Source: Candidatus Saccharimonadota bacterium
Lineage (GTDB): Bacteria > Pseudomonadota > Gammaproteobacteria > Burkholderiales > Burkholderiaceae
Assembly (NCBI RefSeq): GCF_016593155.1
Contig: NZ_AP023215.1
Span: forward strand, 437,265-469,264
Direction: 5' to 3'
DNA length: 32,000 nucleotides
Shown here in pieces: positions 3,303 to 30,333 of the stretch. The position numbers and the translations under genes were made by a program. Each line of letters opens with the position of its first letter. The stretch's first letter is position 1. Under the pieces are notes generated by a model. The model saw nothing but the letters and a program-made list of their open reading frames with translations. It made no database searches and was not told where the DNA came from.

Positions 3303-3375
3303 GAGGTGTTAGCTCAGTTGGTAGAGCAGCGGACTCTTAATCCGTAGGTCGAGTGTTCGAATCACTCACACCTCA
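3303..3375 (+). tRNA. tRNA-Lys(CTT), no encoded CCA
   Basis: GAGGTGT-TA-GCTC-AGTTGGTA-GAGC-A-GCGGA-CTCTTAA-TCCGT-AGGTC-GAGTG-TTCGAAT-CACTC-ACACCTC-A. Perfect 7-bp acceptor stem, anticodon CTT. Confidence 0.9.
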
Positions 3376-16186: not shown

Positions 16187-18145
16187 ATGAAATTTATTAA
16201 TAAAATAAAAAATAGAAAAGCAAAAGAAAAGGCGTTATTGAAGGATGCATTTTCTTTTAATATGAAATCTAGTAGAGAAGAAATTGAAAATCAAAAAAAA
16301 AAGTTAAAAATATTAATTAAAATTGGTAAAGAACGTGGTTATTTAACTTTTTCAGAAATTAATGATTTTCTCCCCGAGGATATTATCGATCAAGAAATAA
16401 TTGAAAGTATTATTAAAACTTTTCAAGATATGGATATTTCTGTATCAGAACATGTATTAGATACGGAGGCATTAATACTTTCTGATAATATTATCACTAA
16501 TGTTACTAGCGATGATTATTTTGAAGAAGCGACAGAGGAAGCATTATCTACAGTTGATTCTAATTTTTGTCGAAACAAAGATCCAATCAAGATGTATATG
16601 AGAGAAATGGGCTCAGTTGAATTATTAACTAGAGATGGAGAGATTGAAATAGCTAAACGTATTGAGGACGGTTTAAAAGATATGATTCATGCTATTTCTT
16701 CATGCCCTACTACTATTATGGAAATATTAATAGCCGCCGATAAAATTTCAAAAAATGAAATTAAGATAGATGAAATAGTTGATGGTTTAATCGATAAAAA
16801 ATTTTTTAGTCATGATCATGTTATTAAAAAAAATAACAAAGGTAATAATAAAAAAAATAATGGAGAAAAAATATTGGTTGAATCTAGCTCAGCTGATTTA
16901 TCTACAGAACAATTAGAAAAATTAAAATATGAATCTTTAATAAAGTTTTCTAATATATCTTTTCATTTTGATAAAATGAGAAAAGCTTTTGAAAAGGAGG
17001 GATATAATTCAGAGTCATATATAAAAGCACATAATAACATTTCTAATGAAATGTTAGGTATTCGATTTACAGCAAAAATTATTGAAAAATTATGCGATAC
17101 CTTGCGAAATCAAATTAATAAAGTTTCTCAAATAGAGAAACAAATTTTAGAAATTGTTGTTAATAAATGTGGAATGCCGCGTTTACATTTTGTTAAAGTT
17201 TTTCCAGAAAATGAAATTAATTTAAATTGGATAGATAATGAAATTAAAGTTAAACATGATTATAATTTAATTTTATGTCGAAATATTCCTTTTATAAAAG
17301 AATTACAACAAAAATTAATTAATTTACAGATAGATATTGTTTTACCATTAGATGATTTACGCGATATAAATAGAAAAATGATTTCTGGAGAAATGAAAGC
17401 TCGTAGAGCAAAACGAGAAATGACAGAAGCTAATTTAAGATTAGTAATTTCAATTGCAAAAAAATATACTGATCGCGGTCTTCAATTTCTTGATTTAATT
17501 CAAGAGGGAAATATTGGTTTAATGAAGGCAGTTGATAAATTTGAATATCGTCGTGGTTATAAATTTTCTACTTATGCAACATGGTGGATAAGACAGGCAA
17601 TTACTCGATCAATTGCAGATCAAGCTAGAACTATTCGTATTCCGGTGCATATGATTGAGACAATTAATAAAATAAGTAGAATATCTCGTCAAATTTTACA
17701 AGAAACCGGTTCAGAACCAGATCCCTCTGTACTTGCAATTAAGATGGAAATGTCTGAAGAAAAAATTAGAAAAATTATGAAAATTGCAAAAGAACCAGTT
17801 TCTATGGAAACCCCAGTAGGGGATGATGAGGATTCTCATTTAGGTGATTTCATTGAAGATGAAAATATGTTAGCACCTTCAGATGCTGCATTAAATGCAT
17901 CAATGCGTGCCGTAGTTAAAGATATTCTTAATTCATTAACTCCAAGAGAAGCTAAGGTTCTGCGTATGCGATTTGGTATTGAAATGTCAAGTGATCATAC
18001 GTTAGAGGAGGTTGGTAAACAATTTGATGTAACACGAGAGCGAATTCGACAAATAGAAGCAAAAGCATTACGTAAATTGCGTCATCCTTCTCGATCTGAT
18101 AAATTAAAAAGTTTTTTAGAAGGGAAGATAATTAAAAAAAATTAA
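16187..18145 (+). CDS. rpoD: RNA polymerase primary sigma factor sigma-70
   Basis: 652 aa. [105 protein letters not shown]. The true start could be the internal Met at codon 26 (MKSSREE...). Confidence 0.95.
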
Positions 18146-18206: not shown

Positions 18207-18556
18207 GGGCCTCTAGCTCATGATTGGTTAGAGCAGCGGACTCATCAAAATGGTGACTTTTTTCAGAAATGAAAATTGAAAAGAATCTAAGTAAAGATTT
18301 AAAAAATTGGGTTAATTCAGGGGAACCTAAGTTTATAATAAAAATATGGCAATCCTGAGCCAAGTCAAAAATACATTTTTGAAAGGTGCAGAGACTAGCG
18401 GAGAGGTAGAGTCCTCTTAATTACCGATAAAAAATACCCGACACCTGAACAATATTTTATTTTTGAATATTGAAGGTGATGAGATAGTCCAGTAAATAGT
18501 GAAAACTATAAAAAAACTGAATCCGTTGGCGCCGTGTTCGACTCACGGGAGGCCCA
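18207..18556 (+). tRNA. tRNA-Ile(CAT) (ileX/lysidine type) split by a group I intron; exons 18207-18245 and 18520-18556; no encoded CCA
   Basis: The joined exons GGGCCTC-TA-GCTC-ATGATTGGTTA-GAGC-A-GCGGA-CTCATAA-TCCGT-TGGCG-CCGTG-TTCGACT-CACGG-GAGGCCC-A form a perfect cloverleaf. G1-C72 and an ordinary anticodon stem rule out an initiator. The sequence closely resembles E. coli ileX, including C4-G69 and C5-G68. Confidence 0.85.
18246..18519 (+). ncRNA. group I self-splicing intron (Azoarcus/IC3-like core), 274 nt, no ORF
   Basis: Inserted after anticodon nt 36 (CAT|AA). P1 has a U-G wobble (exon UCAU / intron GUGA 18253-56). P2 with GAAA loop at 18260-75. P3 UGGGU/ACCCG. P4 UCAGGG/UCCUGA. 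P5 carries the 11-nt receptor CCUAAG/UAUGG. Core GGUGCAGAGACUAG at 18385-98. P7 GACUA/UAGUC. P8 at 18442-78. P9 AUAGU-GAAA-ACUAU at 18496-509. Terminal G at 18519. Confidence 0.85.
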
Positions 18557-18559
18557 TAT

Positions 18560-19975
18560 TTATTTTTTATTTTTTTGAAATAAAGAATAAAAAAAACCAT
18601 CATAATCTTGATTTTTATTTATAGTGGGTAACAATTGACCTGGTGAATATAATCTAATAGAATCTTTATGATTTTTAGAAAAAATCATTGCTTGTTCTTC
18701 TGATTCTTCAAACCATAGTGAACATGTTACAAATAATAATTTTCCACCAGGTTTTAACATTTTCCATAAATTATCGAGAATTTTATAAGAGTATTTAGAA
18801 AGTTTTTTAATATCATTTTTTCTTCGTAACCATGGTATATCTGGATTTCTTCTAACAACACCGGATCCAGTACATGGTACATCAGCTAAAATTCGATCAA
18901 AATATTTATTTTCAGAAAATTTAAAACGATTATTAGTTTTTTTATTTATATTTATAGATAATTTCTTTAAATTAATTTTACTTATATCTAAAGGAATTAA
19001 TGTTGCTTTTAGATTTAATCGTTTTAAATTTTCTGAAATCATATTTAATCGACTTGAATTATTATCAACTGCAATTAGTTTAATATCCGCAATTTCTAAT
19101 AAATGACAGGTTTTACCACCTGGTGCAGCGCAAGCATCTAATACATACATTCCGGAACGAATATCTAATAATGGCGCAGCTAATTGAGCGGCTGCATCTT
19201 GAATTGAGCTAAATCCATTTAAAAATTTAGGAATTTTATAAATAGAAATCGGAGTATGTAATTTTATCGCTAATGGCCCAATAATAGTTGTTTCTAATCC
19301 TGATTTTTTTAAAAGTTTATTATAAGAAATAAGAGTAGTTTTACGTTGATTAATTCGTAATGTTAGTGGTGGTTTTTTATGACCAATATCTAAAATATTC
19401 TTCCATTGAAAAAAATTAGGATAAGTAATTTTAATATGATTTATCCACCATATAGGATAATTCCAATAACTTTCAGAAATATTATATATTTTTTTAAATA
19501 TTTCTTTCTTTTCTCGAAGAAATTTTCGTAAAATTGCATTAATCATATTTTTTGCATAAATTATTTTAAAATTGAACTGGGCAACATTAACAGATTGATG
19601 AACTATAGTATATATTTTATAATAATTTTTAATGTTATTATTTTTATTTTTTATATTTCTATTTTCTGTTTTAATTAATAAAGCTAAAGAACAAAAAAAT
19701 AATCCTTTTAATATTGAAATTTTTATCGGTTTTTTGATTAATTTATTTAATAACATTTCAACTAATCGAAGATGTCGTATAGTATAATAAGTAATATCTT
19801 TTATTGCTCCTTTTGCTTTTTCAGAAATATTTTTTTTATTAAATATTTCTGAAAAAGCTTTTTTTAAAGATATTCTGTTTTTTACATATATAACAGATTT
19901 TGCGGAATTATATAAATAAAATGATAAAGAATTATTATTTTTTTTATAATTATTAATATTATTATTTCGCGACAT
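18560..19975 (-). CDS. rsmB: 16S rRNA (cytosine967-C5)-methyltransferase
   Basis: 471 aa. NusB-like N-terminal domain. SAM site DACAAPGGKT. Catalytic DVPCTGSGVVRRNPDIPW and FVTCSLWFEESE. Confidence 0.85.
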   Translation of the reverse strand: MSRNNNINNYKKNNNSLSFYLYNSAKSVIYVKNRISLKKAFSEIFNKKNISEKAKGAIKDITYYTIRHLRLVEMLLNKLIKKPIKISILKGLFFCSLALLIKTENRNIKNKNNNIKNYYKIYTIVHQSVNVAQFNFKIIYAKNMINAILRKFLREKKEIFKKIYNISESYWNYPIWWINHIKITYPNFFQWKNILDIGHKKPPLTLRINQRKTTLISYNKLLKKSGLETTIIGPLAIKLHTPISIYKIPKFLNGFSSIQDAAAQLAAPLLDIRSGMYVLDACAAPGGKTCHLLEIADIKLIAVDNNSSRLNMISENLKRLNLKATLIPLDISKINLKKLSININKKTNNRFKFSENKYFDRILADVPCTGSGVVRRNPDIPWLRRKNDIKKLSKYSYKILDNLWKMLKPGGKLLFVTCSLWFEESEEQAMIFSKNHKDSIRLYSPGQLLPTINKNQDYDGFFYSLFQKNKK

Positions 19976-24926: not shown

Positions 24927-27821
24927 TTAAGCGAAGTAACGTTTTTCTTCAATATTAAATAAATTATTAAAACAACGATTACATAAATCAGGATAATCAT
25001 CTCTTTCACCAACATCAGGTTGATAATGCCAGCATCGATTACATTTTTTATATATAGATGGTTTAATGATAACGCATTCCTCTGATAAATCTTTAGCTTG
25101 AAATAAACTTACAGAAGATGTTAATAAAAAAAACTTTAATTCTTTTCCAAATTCATTTAGAATTTTAAAATCTGATTTATTAATTTTTAATATTATTTCA
25201 GCTTGAAGTGAAGAACCAATAATACCAGTACTACGAATTTTTTCTAACTTTTTCATAATTTTTGATCTTATTTTTTTTAAAATTATGTATTTATATGATA
25301 ATTCATGGGAATTATAAACTATTGGTAATTTATAATGAAGTTGCGTGAAAATAGTTTCTCCTGATTTTATATAAAAATTTTTATCAGAAAAAATAGACCA
25401 AGCTTCTTCAGCCGTAAAAGATAATATTGGAGATATTAATCTTAATAAAGATTGATTAATATGCCAAATAGCGGTTTGAGCTGAACGTCTAGCATGTGAA
25501 TTTTTTTTAGCAGTATATAACCTATCTTTTAAGATATCTAAATAAAAACTACCTAAATCTTCAGAGCAATATATTTGTAATTTAGATACTATTGGATGAA
25601 ATTCATACATACGATAATGTGACAAAATTTCTTTTTGTAAATTCGTAATATTAATTATTGCATATTGATCAACTTCTACCATATCTGATATATTAACAAT
25701 ATTTATATTTGGATTAAAATCAGATGTATTAGCTAATAAAAATCTTAATGTATTACGAATACGACGATATATTTCGACTATACGATTTAAAATTTCATTT
25801 GAGATTGATAGTTCTTTTGAGTAATCTGTTGAAGCGATCCATAATCTTAAAATTTCTGCGCCAAATAAATTACATATTTTTTGTGGTTTTATTATGTTAC
25901 CTTTTGATTTAGACATTTTTTTACCTTTAGAATCCACAACAAAACCATGTGTTAATAATGCTTTATAAGGTGCGGATTTATTTAATATAATAGACGTGAG
26001 TAAAGATGAATGAAACCAACCACGATGTTGATCTGACCCCTCTAAGCATAAATCAGCTGGAAATATTAATTGTTTTTTATGTGAACCACGAATAACAGTT
26101 TGATGCGTAATTCCGGAATCAAACCAAACATCTAAAGTATCATTACTTTTTTTATAATCTGACGCCTCATCTCCTAAAAATTCTTTAATATCTAAAGTTT
26201 GCCATACTTCAATTCCATTAAGTTCTATTTTTTTTGCAATTAATTCAATTAATTCTATTGTTCTTGGGTGTAATTTTCCACTTTTTTTATGAATAAAAAA
26301 TGCTATTGGTACCCCCCAATGTCGTTGACGTGAAATGGTCCAATCTGGTCTATTGGATATCATGCTTTTTAGTCTATCACTTCCCCAAGAGGGAAAGAAT
26401 TTAATTTTATTAATAGCTGTTAGAGCAGATTCTCGTAAAGATTTTTTTTCGTTTAATGGAATTTTATCCATATTAATAAACCACTGTAATGTAGTACGAT
26501 AAATAATTGGTGTTTTATGTCGCCAACAATGCATATAACTATGTTTAAACATTTCAATATTAAATAAAGTTTTACTTTTTCTTAAATAGGAACAAATTAA
26601 TTTTGAAGCCTCCCAAATAGACATACCCCCAAATAATGGTAAAGTAGATATAAAATTACCATCATCCATAACTGGATTAATAATATCACTATCTTTCATT
26701 TTTTGTTTTTTAAAAATCAAAAAATCTTCAATACCATAGGCTGGCGCAGAATGTACGATACCAGTACCACTATCATTAGTTATATAATCACCTAAATAAA
26801 TTGGTGCTAATCTATTATAATTTATGTTAATATTTGATAGTGGATGAAAAAATTTTATTTTATTTAATTTTATTCCCTTACAAATCCCAATGATATCTCC
26901 TTTTAATCCAAATTTTTTTAAACAACTTTTTACTAAATTAAAAGCTAAAATAAGCAATAAAGAAGAATCATTTTTTATATGAACTAAAGCATAATCAAAT
27001 TCCGGGTGCACATGTAATGCTTGATTAGCGGGAATAGTCCATGGTGTACTAGTCCAAATTACTATATATCCCCTTCCGTTTGGAATATTTTTTAAATTAA
27101 AAATATTTGTTATTTTTTCGGGCTCAGCAAAACTAAATCCTACATAAATTGAAAAATCATATTTTGTTTTGTATTCTATTTCTGCTTCTGCTAATGCAGA
27201 TTTACAATCAAAACACCAATTAACTGGTTTTAATCCATGGTAAACATAGCCTTTTTTAAAAATAACACCAAATGCACGTAACTCATTTGCTTCATTTAAA
27301 AAATCCATAGTTTTATACGAATTATCCCATTCTCCTAATACACCAAGTCTTATAAAATCTATTTTTTGTTTTTCAATTTTTTCAAAAGCCAAGGCTCTTG
27401 CTTTATTTTGAATTTCAATGGGAGATAAGTTTTTACCATATAATTTTTCAATTTGAATTTCTATAGGCATACCATGACAATCATAACCCGGGATATATTG
27501 AGCATCGAAACCATCCATATTATAAAATTTAATAATTATATCCTTTAATATCTTATTAACCGCATGTCCAATATGGATATCTCCATTAGCATATGGGGGA
27601 CCGTCATGTAAAATAAATTTTGGTCGATTAATAGATGCTTTTCTAATTTGATAATATATTTTTTTTTCTTGCCATTTTTTTATCCATTCTGGTTCACGTT
27701 TTACTAACTCTCCTCGCATAGGAAATTTTGTATTAGTTATATTTATTGGATATTTATTTTTTAAATCCTTGTTTTTATTTTTTTTTCTAAAAATTGGTAT
27801 ATTATTATTTTTTTGATTCAT
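24927..27821 (-). CDS. ileS: isoleucyl-tRNA synthetase
   Basis: 964 aa. HIGH ([15 protein letters not shown]), KMSKS ([10 protein letters not shown]), C-terminal zinc knuckles CNRCWHY...CNRC. The N-terminus has about 18 extra Lys/Asn-rich residues before [12 protein letters not shown]. Confidence 0.95.
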
Positions 27822-27915
27822 AATTAAATTATTTTAATTGATATATGTTATTTAATTAATAAATAATTACTTAAAAGTTTTATAATTTTAATATTTTTTT
27901 AAAAAATTTTTAAAA

Positions 27916-28638
27916 TTACATTTCTCCCCATGCTCCATTTAATATTGCTAAAGCCACTAAACTTGCAGTTTCAGTTCGTAATATACGTCTACCTAATGAC
28001 AGTATAATTACCCCATATTTAGATGCTAAATTTTCTTCTTTTTCAGTAAAACCACCTTCTGGACCAATTAATAATTCTACTTTTTGAGTATATTGATTAT
28101 TATTTGCCCAATGTGATAATTTTTGTTTTCCTCTAGGAGAAAGTAGTATTCTTTTACAAAATATTTTGGATATTAACCAATTATTAAAAGAAATATTAGG
28201 AGCTAAAATAGGTAATATATTTCTTCCACTTTGCTCTGTAGCAGAAATTATTATATTTTTCCAGCGAATTCGTTTTTTTGTAATACGCTCATTATTTAGT
28301 TGAACACAACGATTTGTTGTAATTGGTTGTATAATTTTCACGCCAAGCTCCACTGATTTTTCAATAATTAAATTAAATTTACGATTTTCAGGTAATGCTT
28401 GTATTAATATAATTGTATATGGTAGTTCCATTTCGGATGACGAAAAAGAACTTATTTTAATCAAAATTTTTTTTTTAATTGATATTAATTTAGCAATATA
28501 TTCACCACCAAAACCATTAAATAAAATGATTGTATTTCTATATTTTATATGTAATACATTTAAATGATTGACAATATTATCGGGTAAATATAAATACTGA
28601 CCAATTATAAATGGAATTGGATAATAAAAACGTAACAT
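27916..28638 (-). CDS. rsmE: 16S rRNA (uracil1498-N3)-methyltransferase
   Basis: 240 aa. LLIGPEGGFTEKE and LGRRILRTETA motifs of the RsmE/SPOUT family. The start abuts the tadA stop with no gap. Confidence 0.85.
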   Translation of the reverse strand: MLRFYYPIPFIIGQYLYLPDNIVNHLNVLHIKYRNTIILFNGFGGEYIAKLISIKKKILIKISSFSSSEMELPYTIILIQALPENRKFNLIIEKSVELGVKIIQPITTNRCVQLNNERITKKRIRWKNIIISATEQSGRNILPILAPNISFNNWLISKIFCKRILLSPRGKQKLSHWANNNQYTQKVELLIGPEGGFTEKEENLASKYGVIILSLGRRILRTETASLVALAILNGAWGEM

Positions 28639-29121
28639 TTATTTAATATTTATATTTTTATTTTTTATAAAATTACGGCGTTTAATAAAAAATGATTTTA
28701 ATAATTTTTCGCATTGTTTTTTCATAACTCCGCCAGTTAATATAGTATGATGATTTAATTTTTTTTCCTTAAATAAATTAATAATAGAACCACAAGCTCC
28801 TGTTTTTAAAGAAGGAGTTCCATAAATAATTTCACCTAATCTTACATGTATGATTGCCCCAGCACACATTGCGCAAGGTTCTAAAGTTACATATATTTTA
28901 TAATTTTTAGAAAAACGATAATTATTTAAAGCTTTAGAAGCTATTCTTAATGCTATAATTTCAGCATGAGCAGTTGGATCATTTCTAGTAATTTGTTGAT
29001 TATATCCACATGAAATTACTATATTATTTTTAACTAGTACCGCGCCAACTGGTACTTCTCCAGCTCTCCAGGCAAGCTTAGCTTGCAATAATGCAAGTTT
29101 CATAAATTTAATGGAATTCAT
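28639..29121 (-). CDS. tadA: tRNA-specific adenosine(34) deaminase
   Basis: 160 aa. Deaminase zinc motifs HAEIIAL and TLEPCAMCAGAI. Confidence 0.9.
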   Translation of the reverse strand: MNSIKFMKLALLQAKLAWRAGEVPVGAVLVKNNIVISCGYNQQITRNDPTAHAEIIALRIASKALNNYRFSKNYKIYVTLEPCAMCAGAIIHVRLGEIIYGTPSLKTGACGSIINLFKEKKLNHHTILTGGVMKKQCEKLLKSFFIKRRNFIKNKNINIK

Positions 29122-29213: not shown

Positions 29214-29287
29214 AGGCGCGTAGCTCAGGTGGTTAGAGCGTTACCTTGACATGGTAAAGGTCGTTGGTTCAAATCCAATCGTGCCTA
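29214..29287 (+). tRNA. tRNA-Val(GAC), no encoded CCA
   Basis: AGGCGCG-TA-GCTC-AGGTGGTTA-GAGC-G-TTACC-TTGACAT-GGTAA-AGGTC-GTTGG-TTCAAAT-CCAAT-CGTGCCT-A. Anticodon GAC. Confidence 0.9.
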
Positions 29288-30145: not shown

Positions 30146-30222
30146 TGGCGGAGTGGACGGGATTTGAACCCGCGACCCCCGGCGTGACAGGCCGGTATTC
30201 TAACCAACTGAACTACCACTCC
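30146..30222 (-). tRNA. tRNA-Asp(GTC), CCA encoded
   Basis: Reverse complement GGAGTGGTAGTTCAGTTGGTTAGAATACCGGCCTGTCACGCCGGGGGTCGCGGGTTCAAATCCCGTCCACTCCGCCA, nearly identical to E. coli tRNA-Asp. Confidence 0.92.
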
Positions 30223-30257: not shown

Positions 30258-30333
30258 TGGTGGGTGTTGAGAGGATTGAACTCCCGACCTACGCCTTGTA
30301 AAAGCGTCACTCTACCAACTGAGCTAAACACCC
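30258..30333 (-). tRNA. tRNA-Val(TAC), CCA encoded
   Basis: Reverse complement GGGTGTTTAGCTCAGTTGGTAGAGTGACGCTTTTACAAGGCGTAGGTCGGGAGTTCAATCCTCTCAACACCCACCA. Anticodon loop TTTACAA. Confidence 0.92.

Follow-up and report, generated by a model that had tools for sequence, protein, structure and literature searches.

The last 32 kb of the chromosome of Candidatus Profftella armatura from Diaphorina cf. continua (AP023215; 469,264 bp, 24.4% GC; Nakabachi et al. 2020, PMC7643613), hereafter the window (32,000 nucleotides; AP023215 position = window position + 437264), contain a tRNA gene on the forward strand, at 18207-18556 between rpoD and the 3' end of rsmB, whose anticodon loop is interrupted by a group I intron. 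We consider it very probable that this is the single tRNA-Ile2 gene of the genome (anticodon CAU, ileX type), split after nucleotide 36 by a 274-nt intron without an open reading frame (ORF) and spliced to a functional tRNA that reads AUA codons. The intron matches the Rfam family RF00028 (Intron_gpI) over the full model (model positions 1-253; window positions 18253-18511, forward strand) with 75.7 bits and an E value of 9.8e-18, against a gathering score of 50 bits, and this is the sole such match within the window; the orthologous intron of the Profftella strain from Diaphorina citri scores 79.7 bits. It lies between positions 5 and 6 of the anticodon loop (CUCAU|AA), and its terminal G18519 directly precedes AAUCC; loop position 5, U at position -1 and G at omega together define the intron class Ile2.5Ug. 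The intron has an overall GC content of 31%. Its only internal ORFs are two chance ones of 24 and 29 amino acids, and the longest ORF overlapping it (56 amino acids, minus strand) crosses its 5' boundary.

A P1-P9 model of the intron, drawn by hand with all pairs canonical (Table 1), was projected onto a MAFFT alignment of 85 related introns. Across this alignment the 59 model pairs are paired in 86.9% of cells, compared with 34-47% in controls that shift the partners by 1-3 columns; changes on both sides occur at 38 of the 59 pairs, and the observed covariation was reached by none of 500 shuffles. P3, P4, P6, P8 and P9 are 92-100% paired and show compensatory changes, and P7 is invariant, giving a P3-P9 core with the P3/P7 pseudoknot, within which the string GGUGCAGAGACUAG occupies 18385-98. 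An original prediction, made from the letters of the window and a list of its ORFs, had proposed a group I intron in this anticodon loop; the family match and the covariation bear this out, and all motif coordinates that it listed are correct in the sequence. An extra hairpin (18399-18426) sits at the position of P7.1 in other subgroups. Its consensus is NNGGAGAGGUNNAGYCCUCUUAAUNACCNN, its closing pairs covary (e.g. GCGG/CCGC, CUGG/CCAG, AUGG/CCAU), and it is common to many introns of other tRNAs and of phage contigs. The minimum-energy fold of the intron is non-native and was excluded as evidence for the model.

When joined, the exons (39 nt and 37 nt) form a 76-nt cloverleaf with anticodon CAU in ARAGORN, as had been anticipated. 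The acceptor stem, GGGCCUC/GAGGCCC, contains G3-C70, C4-G69 and C5-G68, pairs that have been published as discriminators of tRNA-Ile(CAU) and as determinants of recognition by E. coli TilS; Met and fMet tRNAs have C3-G70 (PMC1635315). E. coli ileX and ileY share the 4-69 and 5-68 pairs of the Profftella tRNA, and metT has U-A and A-U at these places. The gene order of E. coli K-12, rpsU-dnaG-rpoD-ileX (rpoD-mug-ileX), matches the Profftella locus, as expected for positional orthologs, and the order dnaG-rpoD-tRNA(CAU) recurs in betaproteobacterial loci and in ~25 metagenome loci among the matches listed. Acceptor-stem discriminators and rpoD synteny both agree with the ileX-type identity that the original prediction had read from the acceptor stem, and the host gene is an orthologue of the ileX that is linked to rpoD in other Proteobacteria.

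The exon boundaries can be read directly from intronless relatives. The closest free-living relatives by RpoD (74-75% identity) are loci L260, whose RpoD is that of Herbaspirillum hiltneri, and L261; in both, an intronless tRNA directly follows rpoD (4757-4832 in L260, 5132-5207 in L261), and the exons are ~93% identical to Profftella's. These tRNAs read ...GGACTCATAATCCG... and ...GGACTCATAATCCGTTGG..., which is the exact join of 18245 to 18520 (CTCATAA). The predicted spliced junction in Profftella is GGACUCAU|AAUCCGUUGG, also written as GGACTCAT|AATCCGTTGG; the unspliced junctions read GGACTCAT|CAAAATGGTG on the 5' side and AAAAAACTG|AATCCG on the 3' side. At its far end the tRNA closes with ...GGCCCA followed by TAT (18554-18560), so that CCA is not encoded; as to a CCA-adding enzyme, the term 'nucleotidyltransferase' appears in the published gene table (Table S1 of Nakabachi et al. 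2020, PMC7643613) for pnp only.

Run with introns allowed (-i), ARAGORN assigns the window gene differently, as tRNA-Gln(ctg) with a 274-nt intron inserted two nucleotides earlier, and among the matches listed it repeats the tRNA-Gln call for 42 related metagenome loci (L086-L205). Such a split needs a C both at position -1 and as the last nucleotide of the intron, breaking the U(-1)/G(omega) rule, which 98.5% of the mapped group I introns of tRNAs obey (Williams 2020), whereas with the CAU split P1 has a U-G pair and the intron ends in G. An acceptor stem of the ileX kind is contrary to a Gln identity, and the intronless orthologues read CTCATAA at the junction; we give the call practically no credence. 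ARAGORN with introns allowed is a systematic annotation trap for this intron class, in which tRNA(CAU) is miscalled as tRNA-Gln(CUG).

The published gene table lists 34 tRNAs, including one tRNA-Ile (GAU) and two tRNA-Met; it has no tRNA between rpoD and rsmB and no other Ile(CAU) or Ile(UAU) (PMC7643613). One tRNA-Met is initiator-like, being 92% identical to the E. coli initiator. The other (t0100) is elongator-like by its acceptor-stem pairs and by global alignment, while its BLAST comparison with E. coli is ambiguous, with tRNA-Thr and tRNA-Arg as best matches. For the strain from D. citri, Profftella armatura DC, tRNAscan-SE 2.0 records Ile2 as missing, with a 'possible group I intron in Ile2' (Chan et al. 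2021, Supplementary File S5). The original prediction had made the dependence of every AUA codon on splicing and lysidine modification conditional on this being the only copy; the absence of a second Ile2 from the published table, and the failure of tRNAscan-SE 2.0 to find one in the sister genome, favor that condition. The tilS gene that it had suggested seeking is kept elsewhere in the genome (PADco_2710), and ileS is present (PMC7643613). ATA, which it had described as visibly frequent, is the fifth commonest codon in the 17 window genes, at 50.6 per 1000 codons, 40% of Ile codons and 8-61 occurrences per gene. Dependence of AUA decoding on the split gene is supported, because no other Ile2 is annotated, tilS is kept and ATA is frequent; and since ATA makes up ~5% of all codons, essentially every protein would depend on the splicing step. 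An annotation gap is also mended, in that gene tables keep tilS without a TilS substrate, the 'missing' tRNA-Ile2 being hidden by its intron; with tRNA-Ile2 present, the tRNA set is complete for AUA.

Comparison with the D. citri strain, whose orthologous locus (L080) holds this split gene too, indicates that the intron is maintained. Between the two introns there are 17 substitutions in 268 aligned sites (93.7% identity), against 523 in 3709 at third codon positions of six flanking genes (85.9% identity; Fisher p = 1.4e-4); the exons are identical at 74 of 76 positions, and the 5' exon, which at 39 nt is also as long as the 5' exons of Azoarcus and Oxalobacteraceae, is 100% identical. No substitutions relative to the D. 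citri strain fall in P1, P2, P4, P6, P7, the P7.1 stems, J8/7 or P9. Two in P3 exchange U-A and U-G, with pairing kept at both; the P7.1-like hairpin has a single loop substitution; and what look like breaks in P2.1 and in distal P8 reflect shifts of register next to indels. The base composition of the intron is similarly divided: 90 nt of core segments have 60% GC and the remaining 184 nt have 16.3%, close to the 15.9% of intergenic DNA in the window. The core has resisted AT pressure and the periphery has not, and this contrast of 60% with 16% is a natural map of the indispensable intron nucleotides that could aid the design of minimal ribozymes. From these patterns of divergence the intron is evidently under purifying selection, and from its presence at both orthologous loci evidently older than the split of the two sequenced Profftella lineages.

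Reduced symbiont genomes lose tRNAs and carry pseudogenes, and the locus might be a decaying relic, with an inactive intron, a dead tRNA-Ile2 and AUA read by an unannotated tRNA, by misreading or by an imported tRNA. The 10 pseudogenes reported for this genome (PMC7643613) and the absence of the gene from the published annotation are in keeping with such decay. We nevertheless judge it highly improbable, in view of exons and intron that are better conserved than the ~86% identity of third codon positions, a core whose GC has been held against strong AT pressure, and substitutions that all lie in loops or preserve pairing. A relic would also leave TilS, which has tRNA-Ile2 as its substrate, retained to no end, and 5% of codons to be read in a genome whose published table offers no alternative Ile(UAU) or Ile(CAU) tRNA.

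If the split gene is functional, as we think, it would be transcribed as a precursor of ~350 nt, whose intron would fold into the P3-P9 core while exon UCAU and the internal guide GUGA form P1; the GAAA loop of L9 is so positioned that it could dock with the receptor in P5, an arrangement that the Azoarcus ribozyme also has. An external guanosine would attack after U18245, the terminal G18519 would enter the guanosine site in P7, and the exons would be ligated to ...CUCAU|AAUCC.... The spliced tRNA would then be trimmed and receive its CCA; TilS, whose gene lies elsewhere in the genome, would convert C34 to lysidine, and IleRS, the ileS gene being in the window, would charge the product. In this scheme we infer that splicing takes place in vivo and is autocatalytic, in what order the tRNA matures, and that L9 docks on P5.

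Several points weigh against this interpretation. Splicing activity is something that we infer from conservation alone, and the single-copy argument, though supported, draws on published annotations, our own sequence being the window together with 14 kb from the sister genome. The peripheral helices, namely P2, distal P5, P6a and distal P8, consist almost purely of A-U pairs. The nested native helices amount to -35 to -37 kcal/mol, compared with -57.6 kcal/mol for the non-native minimum-energy fold, in which the U-run 18258-63 pairs with an A-rich region near 18374-86 and which is ~20 kcal/mol more stable than the native-like nested helices. An A-U periphery and a more stable non-native fold hint at a kinetic obstacle for this AT-rich ribozyme, which may fold slowly or depend on a chaperone. 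P1 has only 4 bp, and a search of the intron for P10 gave none that was convincing. P8 is without the canonical 11-nt receptor of the Azoarcus type, so that the L2-P8 contact is uncertain.

The same features invite a variant explanation, in which the intron is real and removed in vivo but after AT drift no longer self-splices efficiently, needing a protein chaperone or cofactor of bacterial or host origin. The periphery of 16% GC, the competing fold, the short P1, the want of a clear P10 and the non-canonical P8 receptor all speak for this, and protein-assisted splicing of group I introns is well known from organelles (CYT-18 and CYT-19; PMC3984707). Against it, every element of the catalytic core is intact, as is the L9/P5 tetraloop-receptor pair, and all of them are conserved; no candidate cofactor has been identified. 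Minimum-energy predictions, moreover, leave out tertiary contacts and regularly miss group I folds. We regard dependence on a protein as possible but on balance doubtful.

The original prediction had likened the intron to that of the Azoarcus tRNA-Ile, which is 205 nt long and follows a 39-nt 5' exon (PMC13168695), and had placed both at the same site; the site is indeed the same, after nucleotide 36. A pattern scan over one genome per species, with a pattern that requires ACCUAAG and UAUGGCAA, found Azoarcus-type introns of 202-205 nt in the same tRNA and at the same site downstream of rpoD, in Pseudoduganella, Duganella, Rhodocyclaceae, Chitiniphilus and a Neisseriaceae bacterium. It retrieved no Profftella; the D. 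citri strain, which may be Profftella's species representative, reads GCCUAAG and UAUGGUAA. One of the contigs with an Azoarcus-type tRNA-Ile intron, from Sterolibacterium (L008), also has a Polynucleobacter-1 small RNA at 523-666 (RF01718, 94 bits), unrelated to the present finding.

Profftella and the Azoarcus type resemble each other in the orthologous host tRNA, which has a 39-nt 5' exon and directly follows dnaG-rpoD, and in the insertion after U36. Both introns also have a U-G pair at the 5' splice site and end in omega-G; P2 and P9 are each capped by a GAAA loop, P5 contains the 11-nt receptor, and the strings UAUGGCAA, GAGCCAAG, AGAGACUAG and AUAGUCCAG are common to the two. The differences are more extensive. 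The Profftella intron is 274 nt rather than 202-205 nt, with an additional P2.1 and the P7.1-like hairpin; P4 is UCAGGG/UCCUGA, not UCGGYG/YGCCGA; its core reads GGUGCAGAG where the Azoarcus type has GGUGUAGAG, and GAUGAGAUAGUCC where the latter has GAAGGCAUAGUCC; and its P8 is missing the canonical receptor of the Azoarcus type. The intron thus departs from the compact IC3 architecture of Azoarcus-type introns (~205 nt, confined to P2-P9, with two tetraloop-receptor pairs, L2-P8 and L9-P5), sharing with it the L9 GAAA loop and the P5 receptor. Near-identity had been claimed for the core strings: short strings are shared, but overall identity is 55-60% over 190 aligned positions. At 13 class-diagnostic columns, of which four are fixed in a long class of introns by the search pattern and 18306, 18312, 18319, 18354, 18356 and 18381 are independent of it, Profftella matches the long class at 10 and the Azoarcus type at none. 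Direct descent from the Azoarcus-type allele of other Oxalobacteraceae is unsupported by these values.

By these diagnostic columns and its P7.1-like hairpin the Profftella intron belongs to this widespread long class and not to the Azoarcus type. The long-class pattern occurs at no fewer than 120 metagenome loci (at least 120) and on 53 viral contigs. Among the matches listed, 57 loci with both exons mapped have the loop CUCAU|AA, about two dozen of them downstream of dnaG-rpoD with an RpoD ~52% identical, and the introns closest in structure to Profftella's are environmental ones of the long class, located in tRNA(CAU), Asn, Thr and other tRNAs. Long-class introns of 704-773 nt, lying in tRNA(CAU)-like genes, have near their 5' end an ORF for a protein with an HNH_3 domain and are therefore probably mobile; members of this length, from viral and metagenome contigs, are L208, L213, L166, L238, L242, L244, L248 and L251, several of them on phage contigs of 60-185 kb. 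Some (L208, L213, L166) have the same core signature as the Profftella intron and a near-identical P7.1-like hairpin, e.g. GGAGAGGUUCAGUCCUCUUAAUCACC, and differ from it in their length and endonuclease ORF. At 39 of the 53 viral long-class matches (L206-L258) ARAGORN finds no tRNA around the match, and the introns there are candidates for interrupting protein genes or unusual tRNAs.

Likely Burkholderiales carriers of long-class introns exist (L150, best named match Parvibium, 51%), and these probable Burkholderiales loci, like the nearest GC-rich relative (L181), have introns only distantly similar to Profftella's. Pseudoduganella and Duganella have an Azoarcus-type intron at the site where L260 and L261 have none and Profftella has one of the long class, and there are therefore three allelic states at one site in one family (Oxalobacteraceae-like). 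Such patchy occupancy is a pattern long known for tRNA introns. It is tempting to speculate, with limited confidence, that the long class is a separate clade with a P7.1-like domain, apparently undescribed as a subgroup and with some members phage-borne and equipped with HNH homing endonucleases, and that an intron of this clade entered the rpoD-linked ileX gene of the free-living ancestor, or replaced the allele there, and was locked in by genome reduction. If so, a ribozyme would have become an irreplaceable step in decoding 5% of the codons of an organelle-like symbiont, possibly with the help of a chaperone.

Introns in the Ile2 anticodon loop (Ile2.5Ug) are one of four classical bacterial tRNA intron settings, among 5292 tRNA group I introns mapped in 21 settings (Williams 2020), and for 36 genomes a group I intron has been reported to account for a missing fMet or Ile2 (tRNAscan-SE 2.0, Chan et al. 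2021). Compared with the Ile2.5Ug introns of Williams 2020, Profftella's is set apart by its 31% GC, its residence in the 469-kb genome of an obligate symbiont and its lineage-specific P2.1. The intron of Profftella armatura DC, at the orthologous rpoD-rsmB locus, has the same architecture including P2.1 and P7.1; it differs in length (271 nt vs 274), in indels of the P2.1 loop and distal P8, in the substitutions described above and in coming from another host psyllid lineage. It has been flagged in a table, without structure or analysis (Chan et al. 2021, Supplementary File S5), and the Profftella genome paper does not mention the intron anywhere (PMC7643613). The unusualness that had been claimed for the present case was therefore overstated: it is an ordinary example of a classical kind, unannotated in this genome, whose sister-strain copy was already flagged in print. 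It alters nothing in what is currently understood of group I introns or of the biology of symbionts. Its interest is modest, and lies in the reliance of a 469-kb genome on a ribozyme in an essential gene present once, in the compositional footprint of constraint, and in the long class with its P7.1. A ribozyme of selfish type in the sole AUA-reading gene can be lost only by precise deletion, in a genome that is otherwise shedding non-essential DNA.

Table 1. Positions in the window of the split tRNA-Ile(CAU) gene, its flanking genes and the modelled elements of its intron; percentages give pairing across the 85 aligned introns.
Feature	Position	Strand	Basis or remark
rpoD (PADco_3520)	16187..18145	+	gene order rpsU-dnaG-rpoD-tRNA-Ile(CAU) conserved
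tRNA-Ile(CAU) 5' exon: acceptor, D arm, 5' anticodon stem, loop through C34-A35-U36	18207..18245	+	ARAGORN on joined exons
P1: exon UCAU 18242-45 with internal guide GUGA 18253-56; U18245-G18253 wobble at 5' splice site	18242..18256	+	four canonical pairs; unchanged in D. citri strain
Group I intron, 274 nt, ORF-less	18246..18519	+	RF00028 75.7 bits; 93.7% identical to L080
P2 hairpin, GAAA tetraloop 18266-69	18258..18279	+	aligns with P2/GNRA loop of related introns
P2.1 extra hairpin (AAUCU/AGAUU), Profftella-specific	18283..18300	+	Profftella-only insertion in alignments; 3-nt loop indel vs D. citri strain
P3 5' strand UGGGU, partner 18436-18440	18308..18312	+	98.4% paired, GC/CG/AU exchanges
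P4 (18317-22 / 18353-58, UCAGGG/UCCUGA) enclosing J4/5, P5, J5/4	18317..18358	+	P4 99.6% paired, proximal P5 99.4%
P5 11-nt GAAA-tetraloop receptor CCUAAG/UAUGG	18326-31 / 18345-49	+	read from sequence
P6/P6a hairpin	18359..18387	+	P6 100% paired; four outer P6a pairs 99.4%, many compensatory changes; three inner pairs 77%
J6/7 and P7 5' strand (G18391, GACUA 18393-97): guanosine-binding helix, pseudoknotted with P3	18388..18397	+	six P7 pairs invariant
P7.1-like extra hairpin, P7 to P3' (CGG-A-GAGG-UAGAGU-CCUC-UUAAUUA-CCG)	18399..18426	+	in long class, covarying outer stems
P3 3' strand ACCCG	18436..18440	+	covariation; D. citri comparison
P8 hairpin	18442..18478	+	basal 5 bp 91.8% paired; distal part A/U-rich, 5 nt shorter in D. 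citri strain
J8/7 AUGAGA and P7 3' strand UAGUCC (UAGUC 18485-89)	18479..18490	+	invariant or nearly, across class
P9.0 (18491-92 / 18517-18), P9 18496-18509 with GAAA loop 18501-04, 3' tail to omega-G 18519	18491..18519	+	P9 91.7% paired, compensatory changes at 5/5 pairs
tRNA 3' exon, A37 to discriminator A73; CCA not encoded	18520..18556	+	ARAGORN; junction same in intronless L260, L261
rsmB (PADco_3530)	18560..19975	-	converges on tRNA 3' end

Besides the split gene, the window encodes five further tRNAs (Phe 2738-2812, Lys 3303-3375, Val 29214-29287, Asp 30146-30222 and Val 30258-30333), and rsmE and tadA lie together with ileS at 24927-29121; the published gene table also records a split miaA elsewhere in the genome (PMC7643613). 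The RpoD encoded in the window, for which an exact look-up gave no record, is 90% identical to that of Candidatus Profftella armatura; the assignment to AP023215 follows from Table S1 of Nakabachi et al. 2020, whose printed sequences agree exactly with the first 50 nt of rpoD and with an entire tRNA-Val of the window. At 652 amino acids Profftella RpoD can be set beside free-living Oxalobacteraceae homologues of 702-1016 amino acids, most of those listed having 740-900.

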